A stretch of 64,000 bases of DNA from an uncultured Candidatus Binatia bacterium (GCA_965214605.1 OZ243961.1:2432001-2496000), one strand, 5' to 3'; positions 42,104-45,741 are shown, numbered from the stretch's first letter. Translations and numbers: made by a program. The notes: a model not told the origin generated them from the letters alone.

Positions 42104-43075
42104 ATGAGGGATGTATTAAAGATCTTCGCCGGAAGATCGAATCGGCCGTTGGCTGAAGAGATTTGTGCCAGCCTACCAGAGCGGCTGGGAACGGCTGATA
42201 TTCGGACCTTCAGCGATGGCGAAAGCTCGGTTGAAATTACTGAGAATGTTCGGGGTGGTGACGTCTTTGTAGTGCAGTCTTTGTGTACCCCCGTCAACGA
42301 TCACCTCATGGAGTTGCTACTGATGCTTGACGCGTTCAAGCGCGCCTCGGCAAACCGGATTACCGCCGTGATTCCCTACTACGGCTATGCCCGTCAAGAT
42401 CGAAAGGTTGCCCCCCGCGTGCCGATTAGCGCAAAATTGGTGGCCGACCTGCTCACCACTGCGGGAGCCTCGCGGGTGCTAACGGCAGAATTACACGCCG
42501 GCCAGATTCAGGGCTTCTTTAATATCCCGGTCGACAACCTGTTTTCGGCACCCGTGCTCGTGCCGTATCTGAGCTCCCGGGTCGGGCGCGAGAAGATCTG
42601 TGTTGTGTCTCCAGACGCGGGCGGAGTAGAACGCGCCCGGGCGTTTGCCAAGCGCCTTGGAGCCTCCTTGGCGATTATAGACAAGCGTCGTGGTCAGGAG
42701 GTCGAAGATAGTCTGTCGGCTAACGCCAACCGTAGCGTTGCCGAGATGCACATCATTGGTGATGTTGGCGGTCGGGTTGCTGTCTTAGTCGATGATATGG
42801 TGGATACAGCCGGGACTCTCACCACCGCGGCTTCGGCACTGCACGAGGCCGGAGCCCAGGCGGTCTTTGCCTGTTGTACACACGCCGTGCTGTCTGGCCC
42901 GGCAATTCGACGGATAGAGGAGTCTGCTCTGGAGGAACTTGTGGTCACCAATTCGATTCCGCTCCGGCCCGAGACCCACGATCTGGACAAAATTCACGTC
43001 CTGTCAATCGCTCCGCTGATGGGAGAGGCCATTCGACGTATCCACAATGAGGAATCGATTAGCTCTCTGTTTTAA
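42104..43075 (+). CDS. prs: Ribose-phosphate pyrophosphokinase
   Basis: [31 protein letters not shown] motifs. Confidence 0.97.
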
Positions 43076-43113
43076 GCTAGCGCTACGAGAGAGGCGAAGA
43101 AAATGAGGACACG

Positions 43114-43770
43114 ATGGAAAACGTACAGCTGAGAGTTGAAACGCGTCAGGCAAAAGGAAAAGAACGCGCTGCCCAAATGCGGCGGGCGGGGAAAGTGCCG
43201 GGCGTCTTTTATGGAACCGGAAGAGCGGCGACCTCTCTCAGCGTTGATGCTAAGGAGTTTCGCATACAACTGTCGAAAATCCAAGGTGCGCCTCTACTGA
43301 AACTGTCTTCCTCAGCCCCTGAATTGAACGATAAGCTCGTTTTGCTCAAAGAAGTGCAGTGCCATCCGGTGACCAGCGCGTTCTTACATGCCGACTTCTT
43401 TGAGGTTGATGAGAGCAAGCGGCTCCAGACCATCATCCCTGTCCATATCTCTGGCAGAGCCAAAGGCGTCACGGCTGGTGGGACGCTCCAGGTCCTGCTC
43501 CGTGATATTACCATTGAGTGTTTGCCTCGCGACCTACCTTCCTCGGTTGAGATTGATGTAACCGAACTCGATATCAACGATGTAATTCGTATTGAAGACC
43601 TGAATCTATCCGAGCAGGTCACAGTCCTCACCGGTCTGCATACAGCCGTAGTTAACGTCCAAATGCGTCGCCAGCTACAGGTCGTGGAAGAAGAAACCAC
43701 TGAAAAGGAGATCGCCGAAACCACCGAAGAACGGCCAGCAGACAACGCTTCAGCCGGAGCAAGCGAATAG
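43114..43770 (+). CDS. rplY: 50S ribosomal protein L25 (Ctc/TL5 long form)
   Basis: RRAGKVPGVFYG, HADF, position after prs. Confidence 0.93.
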   Translation: MENVQLRVETRQAKGKERAAQMRRAGKVPGVFYGTGRAATSLSVDAKEFRIQLSKIQGAPLLKLSSSAPELNDKLVLLKEVQCHPVTSAFLHADFFEVDESKRLQTIIPVHISGRAKGVTAGGTLQVLLRDITIECLPRDLPSSVEIDVTELDINDVIRIEDLNLSEQVTVLTGLHTAVVNVQMRRQLQVVEEETTEKEIAETTEERPADNASAGASE

Positions 43771-43795
43771 CTGTCCACCGCTTAGAAGGAACGTC

Positions 43796-44330
43796 GTGCG
43801 TGCGTTGGTCGGTTTGGGGAATCTAGGCCCGGCTTATACAACACCCATCACAATCTGGGTTATCGACATACTGGTAGGACGATGGTGCATTCTGCTTGTC
43901 AGCAGCCCACTGCTATCTCTGATCGGTCAGGGATGCCGCTATACCCAGACCGTCCTGTTTGTCCAGCCCCGGACCTAGTATGAACAATAGCGGGGAAGCG
44001 GCGGGCTAGGTTTGGGATTTTTATGATTTGTCTGCGCCCGATTTCCTGGTCGTACACAATGACCTCGATCTGCCCGCGTGCCGTATTCCCGCCAAGCGGG
44101 ATGGGGGGGGGTGGCGCTGGTAGCAATCGGGGAATAGCTTCGATCATTGACGGACTTGGCAGTAAGGATTTTCCCTGAGTGAAGATCGCTGTTGGACGAC
44201 CTCAGGATACCACGCGCATCTCGCGCACCTGAAGGAGTATTTAGGTTCTGCATGGCGATGCACGCAGGGGATGCGGTCGAGGGGATGCTCGCACAAGGGC
44301 TGGAGCGGGCAATGGACAGGCTTAATCGGG
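43796..44330 (+). pseudogene. pth: Peptidyl-tRNA hydrolase pseudogene
   Basis: LVGLGN..HNLG; QPRT/MNNSGEA; VVHNDLDLP..GSNRGIASII..DFP*VKIAVGRP; GLERAMDRLN; multiple frameshifts and stops. Confidence 0.9.
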
Positions 44331-44431
44331 TCGGGGGCGAAGTCCCGCCGATTTGGACCTCAATCCGCTCTATTGTCGCCCCTTTTTCCCTATGCTATGC
44401 AAAACATATATCGTGCAGACCGGAGGAATGC

Positions 44432-44920
44432 ATGCCGATTTATGAAACACTCACTATTCTTCGTCCCGACTTGGCCGAGGCTCGAGTGAAGGAAATCTTG
44501 ACCTGGATGGAAAAGCTTGTCGAGAACGGCCGAGGAAAGGTGCTCCAGGTTGAAGAGTGGGGAATGCGTGATCTCGCCTATCGGATTCAGAAACAACGTA
44601 AGGGCTATTACGTCCGCCTCGAATACGAGGCCATACCTGCGGCGCTCCAAGAGCTGGAACGCAACTTTCGGTTGAGCGAAGATGTGATACGGTTTCTGTC
44701 CGTCGTGCGCAAAACCCCTTCAGTCAAGCTCCCAAGCATGCAGCCTCACTCCGAAGCGGTTACCGAGATAGCTGCCGATACGCCGTCCGAAGCTTCTATT
44801 GAACCTGCCGCTGAGACGGGCCCACCAGCCCTACAACAAGGGGCCACACAGGATCCTGCGGTCACGCCTGCGGGTGGGCAGGATAAGCATGACGAGTCAC
44901 CCTCGCCCGCTACAAATTGA
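44432..44920 (+). CDS. rpsF: 30S ribosomal protein S6 with a long C-terminal tail
   Basis: YETLTILRPDL, WGMRDLAYRI, GYY, VIRF motifs. Confidence 0.95.
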   Translation: MPIYETLTILRPDLAEARVKEILTWMEKLVENGRGKVLQVEEWGMRDLAYRIQKQRKGYYVRLEYEAIPAALQELERNFRLSEDVIRFLSVVRKTPSVKLPSMQPHSEAVTEIAADTPSEASIEPAAETGPPALQQGATQDPAVTPAGGQDKHDESPSPATN

Positions 44921-44943
44921 CAAGACACTGAGGAGAACAACGC

Positions 44944-45234
44944 ATGGCAAGATCACCGGCAAGAGGAGGGAGGTTCCGACGCGCCCAGCCTGGGGACGAT
45001 AAATTTCCGGCACGCCGCCGCTTGCGACGAAAAGTGTGTCGGTTCTGTGCTGATAAAAGTCTGTCGATTGACTATAAGGAAGCACGCATCCTCGAGGACT
45101 TCATCACTGAACGAGGAAAAATTATTCCCCGCCGCATCACCGGAACGTGTGCCTGGTGTCAGCGTAAACTGACAACGGCTGTCAAGCGGGCGCGGGCGAT
45201 TGCTCTACTGCCGTATGTGAGAACCCAGGTGTAA
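44944..45234 (+). CDS. rpsR: 30S ribosomal protein S18 (C+ zinc type)
   Basis: [24 protein letters not shown] motifs. Confidence 0.97.
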
Positions 45235-45288
45235 GTCTCAGGCAGATCGCTCCGCCTTGTGTTTTGGTGCGCACTGCCGTAAAGAAGA

Positions 45289-45741
45289 ATGGCCATGGAG
45301 ATTATTCTACAGGAAGAGGTCGCCAATCTGGGGCAGATTGGCGATATTGTTAAGGTCAGAGATGGCTACGCGCGGAACTATTTGCTGCCCCGTGGGCTGG
45401 CAGTTGAGGCAAACCGGCGCAATGTCCGCGTCCTCGAACATCACAAGCGTTTGGTGGCGGGCAAAAAAGAACGAGCCGAGCGCCAAGCCCAGGCACTCGT
45501 TGAACAGCTGTCCGCCTTGAGTCTCACCATACCAGCCAAGGCAGGAGAAGAAGGACGCTTGTTTGGATCGGTCACGAATATTGACCTTGAGACGGCCCTC
45601 AAAGAGAAGGGGATGAGCCTTGACCGACGGAGAATTCTCCTTGACGAGCCGATCAAGCAGGTGGGGTCATATGAGGTGTCGATCAATCTGGGCAACGCAA
45701 TGCGGGCAACTATTAAGGTTGAGGTCACTGCCGAATCCTAA
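45289..45741 (+). CDS. rplI: 50S ribosomal protein L9
   Basis: VKVRDGYARNYLLP, LFGSVT motifs. Confidence 0.97.
   Translation: MAMEIILQEEVANLGQIGDIVKVRDGYARNYLLPRGLAVEANRRNVRVLEHHKRLVAGKKERAERQAQALVEQLSALSLTIPAKAGEEGRLFGSVTNIDLETALKEKGMSLDRRRILLDEPIKQVGSYEVSINLGNAMRATIKVEVTAES

Follow-up and report, generated by a model that had tools for sequence, protein, structure and literature searches.

Pth1 is treated as a universal essential enzyme, an antibiotic target and a single-copy completeness marker, and the locus described here, in which its gene is broken inside an otherwise clean operon of translation genes, raises the question of how a bacterium with a genome of free-living size does without it. 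The available portion of one study describes Pth as ubiquitous and essential for bacterial viability (PMC3488237), and full-text literature, as far as its searchable text extends, yielded neither a description of a free-living bacterium without pth nor, in papers on Binatia, any reference to the gene, although supplementary gene-content tables could bear on this. The window, that is the whole stretch of 64,000 nucleotides that was analysed, comes from an uncultured Candidatus Binatia bacterium and corresponds to G000:C1:2432001-2496000, where G000 denotes the genome bearing the dead pth; positions without a contig name are counted from the first letter of the window. The G000 assembly comprises 4,374,632 bp, with contig C1 of 4,312,128 bp and 8 small contigs totalling 62 kb. 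It contains no N, has a completeness of 99.99%, and with its 9 contigs is near-closed, though not formally closed.

Between rplY and rpsF, on the + strand, G000 has a 660-bp stretch without a long ORF. The neighbouring genes, described as clean in the initial annotation, are indeed full-length ORFs with the expected Pfam domains, and the features of the region are as follows.

42104 to 43075, + strand: prs (ribose-phosphate pyrophosphokinase), intact; Pribosyltran_N 181 bits, Pribosyl_synth 122 bits; 89.8% nucleotide identity to the same-genus genome G007
43114 to 43770, + strand: rplY (ribosomal protein L25/TL5), intact; Pfam Ribosomal_L25p and Ribosomal_TL5_C; 85.5% nucleotide identity to G007
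43796 to 44345, + strand: pth pseudogene, aligned over the full 192-codon G007 gene; net -27 bp
44432 to 44920, + strand: rpsF (S6), intact, with its own GGAGG ribosome-binding site and ATG at 44432; Pfam Ribosomal_S6 101.7 bits
44944 to 45234, + strand: rpsR (S18), intact; Pfam Ribosomal_S18
45295 to 45741, + strand: rplI (L9), intact; Pfam Ribosomal_L9_N and Ribosomal_L9_C

The order prs-rplY-pth-rpsF-rpsR-rplI is collinear between G000 and all seven same-genus loci (G001-G007). The comparison with sister genomes proposed in the initial annotation shows that every one of these seven carries an intact pth of 192-229 codons in the same slot. No promoter-like site on the + strand and no terminator-like site was found in 42900-45400, so that neither accounts for retention of the remnant.

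A six-frame search of the whole of G000 with PF01195 (a 183-position domain with a 27-bit cut-off) returned three fragments, all in the rplY-rpsF slot, in different frames and with a stop inside each.

43805 to 43978: model positions 2-62, 12.6 bits
43956 to 44108: model positions 55-105, 31.2 bits
44107 to 44211: model positions 103-137, 23 bits

The Pth proteins of intact relatives score 177-229 bits across model positions 1-183. With the Pth protein of G007, the closest relative, as query the same slot is matched in four pieces (E 3.4e-15 to 7.3e-8), well beyond chance, and the DNA alignment of the remnant to the G007 gene gives 425 matches and 120 mismatches over 545 aligned bases, or 78% identity. 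Projection of the G007 codons onto the remnant yields 88 identical, 28 synonymous, 61 non-synonymous and 14 gap-touched codons, with two substitution stops. The motifs by which the slot had been recognised (GLGN, HNLG, MNNSGEA, HNDLDL, GIASII and VGRP) are all present, spread over three frames. The several frameshifts and at least two stops of the initial annotation resolve into five frame-shifting indels (-1, -8, +1, +4 and -23 bp) and two substitution stops, and the remnant reaches to about 44345, 15 bp past the end first noted. Searched singly against Pfam, small pieces of the remnant gave no match at E up to 0.01, being too short alone. The lesions, placed by alignment to G007, are listed below.

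43836/7, + strand: lesion 1, -1 bp, codon 14
43853/4, + strand: lesion 2, -8 bp, codons 20-23; one copy of a tandem TCTGGGYT repeat gone
43976 to 43978, + strand: lesion 3, +1 bp (G at 43978), giving a TAG that ends the 60-aa ORF from the original GTG
44007 to 44009, + strand: substitution stop, Arg74 (CGG in G007) to TAG
44103 to 44111, + strand: lesion 4, +4 bp inside a run of 9 G
44176 to 44178, + strand: substitution stop, Arg129 (CGG in G007) to TGA
44223 to 44224, + strand: lesion 5, junction of a 23-bp deletion, codons 145-152

The 8-bp deletion looks, from its sequence context, like replication slippage in the tandem repeat. Catalysis by Pth1 involves the His of the TRHN motif and the Asp of the HDDLDL motif, and both residues are out of frame in the remnant: the 1-bp deletion at codon 14 precedes the His codon (codon 19 in G007), while the HNDLDL segment with its Asp lies in another frame than the start codon, downstream of two stops. 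The longest ORF left, of 60 aa, begins at the original GTG and leaves the Pth frame at codon 14. With its frame gone ahead of the catalytic His, and with a further four indels and two stops behind that point, the remnant cannot make a hydrolase; where a functional Pth1 would be a single ORF of about 190 codons with a full PF01195 domain above 27 bits, no such ORF is left. The claim that pth was destroyed in situ is thus upheld by the lesions relative to G007, and descent from Pth1 is evident from the syntenic slot and from DNA alignable over the whole gene. The last ~45 codons of the remnant (…AMHAGDAVEGMLAQGLERAMDRLNR…) are stop-free and in frame with rpsF, producing a 242-aa ORF with a TTG start (44192-44920); this ORF joining the remnant to rpsF is probably meaningless, rpsF keeping its own GGAGG and ATG.

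The age of the loss was approached through the changes specific to the G000 branch, polarised with G007, G006 and at least 3 of 4 outgroups (G001, G003, G004 and G005). G007 and G006 are sisters (90-94.5% identical over these genes), and G000 is the next branch, its identity being 78.5% in pth and 82-90% in the neighbouring genes. Codon positions 1, 2 and 3 of pth carry 23, 24 and 18 changes specific to G000 (over 179, 176 and 170 sites), a pattern that fits uniformity (chi-square p=0.71). In the five neighbours pooled the corresponding counts are 29, 20 and 100 (Fisher p=1.1e-7 versus pth). The pth of the sister clade has 13, 13 and 19, which is not significantly different from G000 pth (p=0.15). 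The pth rate on the G000 branch, 0.12 per site, is about that of the neighbours' third positions, 0.11. From the uniform codon positions and this rate it follows that selection on pth ceased close to where the terminal branch begins; the gene has drifted neutrally for about the entire time since the split from the sister species.

Within the genus the intact genes tell of selection that persists, but weakly: comparison of intact same-genus pairs puts the dN/dS of pth at 0.23-0.46, apart from one pair that is saturated (0.09), and that of the neighbours at 0.02-0.36, and the sister species keep pth under weak purifying selection. The same-genus Pth proteins (L019-L024) have 192-229 aa and a hypervariable insert after about residue 55 (e.g. 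...HARGNVRTDGDSDKGKRENRW... in G003). Their PF01195 scores are 177-205 bits, compared with about 178-225 in the other families searched and about 201-218 in other genera of family f1; such variable, lower-scoring proteins fit a weakened constraint before the loss in G000. A metagenome scan for RplY, covering 38 loci of which none was closer than 46% identity, gave no closer relative in an intermediate state, and the metagenome loci reaching past rplY all have a Pth match in the slot. At one of these (L092:1790-2730) pth is split into two frames, and prs on the same very GC-rich contig is likewise garbled, so that L092 is probably a poor contig and not a second pseudogene; L083, where the Pth match lies at a palindromic contig end, was likewise treated as unreliable.

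The locus thus has the marks of a unitary pseudogene, namely inactivating lesions, absence of codon-position bias, absence of an intact paralogue, and recurrence in other samples that argues against an assembly error. We hold with high confidence that it is a unitary, fixed and old pseudogene of a vertically inherited pth, which makes no hydrolase, in a genome without another Pth1, Pth2, ArfB or bVLRF1, and that constraint ended close to the start of the terminal branch. Compared with Pth1 (PF01195, e.g. E. coli Pth), the remnant occupies the rplY-pth-rpsF slot, is 78% identical in DNA to the G007 gene and has the family motifs in scattered frames; unlike Pth1, it has five frameshifts, two stops and a longest ORF of 60 aa, and is dead in a 4.4-Mb genome. 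The loss of an ‘essential’ gene is a known kind of event; here it concerns a large genome of free-living size, in which pth has been dead for about one species-level branch with no known substitute, and it recurs within one class.

According to the initial annotation, peptidyl-tRNA recycling would have passed to a Pth2/PTRHD1-like enzyme, to something new or to a xenologous copy elsewhere. Pth2 (PF01981) and the ArfB/ICT1-type GGQ proteins (PF00472) are the known non-orthologous peptidyl-tRNA hydrolases, and G000 has neither. The site of ArfB action is the ribosome; free peptidyl-tRNA is not its target. No second Pth1 was found in G000 beyond this locus with PF01195 or the G007 Pth at E up to 10, and a tblastn search that used 6 Pth proteins from the genus as queries, likewise at E up to 10, gave the locus and noise only among the matches listed (2 of 6 queries); the proposed xenologous copy did not appear in these searches, nor did a vertically inherited duplicate, which the annotation had named as an outcome that would overturn its reading. 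The proposed Pth2-type replacement also fails, with 0 PF01981 matches in G000 in six frames at E up to 10. Across G000 and 20 pth-less Binatia, Pth2 was found in 0 of 21 at E up to 0.01, in a search to which control genomes responded. The suggested ArfB search with PF00472, which also covers PrfH, returned two matches only in G000, in open frames of 356 and 404 aa, which are RF1 and RF2; a third GGQ protein (the ArfB type, of ~140 aa) is likewise absent from G014, G050, G052 and G164. For bVLRF1 (PF18826) there were 0 matches in G000 at E up to 1, in a search whose sensitivity is unproven, no control genome having scored above the cut-off.

Several other ways of compensating for the loss were considered and rejected. 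Missing N-formylation, which would leave short peptidyl-tRNAs to cleave themselves, is excluded by the presence of fmt (311 bits against a cut-off of 201.5) and two def genes. Amplification of tRNA genes (e.g. tRNA-Lys) is excluded by the complement of 47 tRNA genes, one per anticodon except for CAT with three. Two ordinary editing enzymes, a YbaK-type deacylase (69.6 bits) and DTD (200.7 bits), are encoded by G000, with no evidence tying either to peptidyl-tRNA. ArfB as a general substitute is excluded by its absence from G000, G014, G050, G052 and G164, and by its distribution in family f10, described below, where it is found regardless of pth. G000 has tmRNA, and a single primer-site pair for 16S suggests one rRNA operon and slow growth.

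RF3 (TIGR00503) is absent from G000, in which the best match scores 163 bits against a cut-off of 467. It was found in 6 of the 41 genomes searched, in 1 of 24 relatives within family f1 and in none of the 7 same-genus relatives. In E. coli, the accessible part of one study reports that RF3 knockout relieves pth(ts), and that RF3 with RRF drives drop-off (PMC10192219). The parallel is that how much Pth a cell needs depends on how often RF3 and RRF cause drop-off, and that G000 and nearly all of its family are RF3-less; the difference, within that same part of the study, is that RF3 loss in E. coli gives partial relief of a temperature-sensitive allele, and not Pth-free life (PMC10192219). The absence of RF3 was rejected as a sufficient or discriminating cause of pth loss, being a family-wide background: G033 is pth-less yet has RF3, while the 7 same-genus relatives are RF3-less yet have pth. 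It is plausible as a predisposing background in family f1. Among the weaker RF3-model matches in G000, those at C1:4183145-4184536 and C1:3449086-3450495 (163 and 111 bits, in long ORFs) look by match length like EF-G paralogues. An identical-scoring pair, among C1:1588599-1589024 and C1:1602977-1603402 / C1:1127969-1128442 and C1:2702477-2702932 (three duplicated pairs were noted, including two peptide deformylase genes), looks by the same measure like EF-Tu copies.

The loss is not confined to G000. Among 350 Binatia genomes of at least 90% completeness, a PF01195 match is present in 327, the G000 fragments counted in, and a working pth is missing in 24, comprising 23 without a PF01195 match and the broken G000. 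The identical census was applied to a single control class, the class around the Nitrospira sp. genome G360 (L158), chosen as similar slow-growing environmental bacteria, and found Pth in 347/351 genomes, with 4/351 lacking it. The contrast of 24/350 with 4/351 has a Fisher p=7.6e-5, which is overstated because relatives are not independent. Genomes flagged as unpublished, all of which have Pth (G316, G306, G074, G166, G165, G124, G160, G198 and G331 in Binatia, G615 in the control class), enter the tallies only; without them the counts are 318/341 Binatia and 346/350 controls, and no pth-less genome is among those flagged. Genes missed through incompleteness must be rare, since the census of the RF-1 domain is near complete: fewer than two matches were found in only 4/350 Binatia, and all 145 genomes of f1 and f9, families poor in ArfB, have at least two (RF1 and RF2). 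Some of the uninspected pth-less genomes at 92-95% completeness may nevertheless be false absences.

The losses are concentrated in some groups. In family f10, pth is present in 7 of 18 high-quality genomes; the 11 pth-less members are G033, G167, G168, G170, G171, G174-G178 and G183. In genus g8 it is present in 20/23, and those without it include G052, assembled as 1 contig, and G014, in 2 contigs, both 100% complete. The locus was inspected in 6 of the 20 pth-less genomes first listed (G014, G050, G052, G033, G168 and G199); G341, G349 and G351 are three further genomes without the gene. In all six, prs, rplY, rpsF, rpsR and rplI lie on one contig, with a rplY-rpsF gap of ~60-270 bp. The congeners G020 and G169 keep pth in the rplY-rpsF slot, and three congeners of G169 are without it. 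G014 and G052 share a homologous gap sequence with no trace of pth, which marks a single older deletion common to both. In sum, pth has been lost in several separate Binatia lineages, by decay in G000 or by deletion in others. A third GGQ (ArfB-like) match follows family and not pth status, being present in 18/18 genomes of f10 and 2/39 of f1; ArfB-like genes do occur in pth-less Binatia of f10, f12, f13, f4 and f11. The 24 genomes without a working pth, of which three are closed or almost so, provide a contrast set for finding the enabling factor, for which f10 is the best place to look, and they turn the indispensability of Pth and the alternatives for peptidyl-tRNA recycling into a testable comparative question with a defined genome set. 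As a marker of genome completeness, pth is not to be relied on in Binatia. Unusually weak PF01195 matches (E 3e-40 to 2e-16, versus about 1e-55 to 1e-65 in relatives) were seen in G051, G219 and G244 and in the control genomes G609, G635 and G713, all of which may have a truncated or decaying pth.

Our best guess, held tentatively and at a little under an even chance, is that Pth1 is dispensable in Binatia through a class-wide back-up activity of neither Pth1 nor Pth2 type, for which no enzyme candidate was found. Such an activity, not homologous to either family, would free tRNA from dropped-off peptidyl-tRNA throughout the class, and the drop-off load in this family would probably be lowered further by the lack of RF3 together with slow growth (one 16S, single-copy tRNAs). 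With the back-up in place, pth would be helpful but non-essential, most species would retain it under weakened purifying selection, and some lineages would then lose it, by decay in G000 and by deletion elsewhere. The activity itself could be a new type of peptidyl-tRNA hydrolase, or another form of tRNA rescue (e.g. CCA-end cleavage and repair), unrelated to Pth1, Pth2 and the GGQ factors, a proposal that we consider possible and put forward with somewhat greater reserve. If such an enzyme exists, it would be a new core-translation enzyme and would explain the repeated loss of pth in this class. Against a class-wide back-up stands the dN/dS of sister pth, which is below 0.5, so that pth is not neutral within the genus.

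The chief competitor, a serious possibility that we nevertheless rate as the lesser one, is that no enzyme replaces Pth at all: with drop-off rare for lack of RF3, stalled ribosomes cleared by trans-translation and growth slow, spontaneous ester hydrolysis and tRNA turnover would suffice to leave enough usable tRNA. The presence of tmRNA and the failure to find any known hydrolase in G000 agree with this, as does the gene complement of one 16S and 47 tRNA genes, one per anticodon, which probably marks a slow grower. In yeast the Pth homologue is reportedly dispensable, going by the title of a 2002 article by Menez. RF3 is missing in G000 and nearly all of f1, and RF3 knockout relieves E. coli pth(ts), as noted in the accessible part of the E. 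coli study (PMC10192219). Slow growth without RF3 cannot be the whole story, however, because the similar slow-growing control class is almost never pth-less (4/351), and because the 7 RF3-less same-genus relatives still keep pth under selection; moreover f10, which has most of the losses, has RF3 in the single member tested (G033). It is the retention of pth in the control class and in the RF3-less sisters that leads us to favour a class-specific back-up over the absence of any enzyme. Were there truly no back-up enzyme, Binatia would show how far drop-off can be tolerated.

A hydrolase of a known family might instead have been overlooked, lying on an unassembled plasmid or in a gap, or being too divergent for the models. 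HMM searches do have limits and the 9-contig assembly is not formally closed, but C1 of 4.31 Mb and the further 62 kb contain no N at a completeness of 99.99%, the six-frame searches with PF01195 and PF01981 reached up to E 10, and the tblastn matches listed were the locus and noise. Closed pth-less relatives also exist, G052 with 1 contig and G014 with 2 contigs, both 100% complete, and we regard an overlooked enzyme as improbable.

Still less credible is an error of assembly or sequencing, or a minority strain with a defective allele among cells that mostly carry an intact gene. Thirteen public runs from six studies, with no RNA run listed among them, contain part of the stretch, and 4 runs from 4 studies were compared as Logan contigs. 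X1 has one 25-kb contig across 43300-44900, with 2 substitutions and no gap, which reproduces all lesions; X1 may be the source sample. The X5 contig is identical over 43300-44059, which takes in lesions 1 to 3 and the TAG at 44007, and a second X5 contig spans 44298-44900. X7 contributes pieces at 44005-44155, which cover the +4 G-run and the TAG at 44007 without a gap, and at 44232-44437, and X6 covers the flanks of the remnant only. No indel difference from G000 is listed in any of the four runs. Contigs of other studies (X5 and X7) thus reproduce 4 of the 5 indels and 1 of the 2 substitution stops, while X1 alone, possibly the source sample, covers the 44176 TGA and the 23-bp deletion. No alternative contig at 88% likeness or above was found in the compared runs, although contigs drop rare variants and a minority intact allele is possible. 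With the same lesions in short-read contigs of other studies, the defect is not an assembly error, and the intact ORF that reads might have restored, which the initial annotation had named as a refuting outcome, is not restored by these contigs. One lesion does lie in a 9-G homopolymer, and two are covered by X1 alone; against this, homopolymer error does not account for the 8-bp and 23-bp deletions or for either substitution stop, -1, -8, +1, +4 and the TAG at 44007 recur in the contigs of two other studies, the five neighbours are clean, and the uniform codon-position pattern of the 65 substitutions is impossible from sequencing error. The initial annotation had taken the many substitutions to argue against sequencing error, and both this pattern and the contigs of other studies bear it out. 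An artefact or minority allele is therefore already largely refuted, and we give it very little weight.

Expression of the broken gene by recoding (programmed frameshifts, transcriptional slippage or stop read-through), for which a precedent in Blochmannia vafer (PMC3017870, as far as the accessible text goes) and the location of one of the five indels in a G-run might speak, would need five frame corrections, four of them outside homopolymers, and read-through of TAG and TGA, with 31 coding bases simply missing, and is already refuted, its probability being negligible, by a neutral substitution pattern whose lack of codon-position bias leaves no protein under selection.

Blochmannia vafer, an ant endosymbiont, is the nearest precedent found in the literature as available to us: the accessible text describes one homopolymer frameshift in pth, no rate acceleration and a suggested transcriptional slippage (PMC3017870). 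The two cases are alike in having a frameshifted pth amid conserved translation genes. Unlike this obligate intracellular symbiont, as portrayed in that text, G000 has a genome of 4.4 Mb, and its pth combines two stops and a neutral pattern with five indels, of which one falls in a homopolymer. Outside the window, at G000:C1:488100-489200 (L054), lies a decayed YbaK/ProX-type tRNA_edit domain (29.4 bits) with an internal TGA, of which the C-terminal motif (PPFGNLFGLDVWVD...FNAGTH) is readable and the upstream part is frameshifted. This second decayed tRNA-related gene suggests that G000 retains dead genes for a long time.
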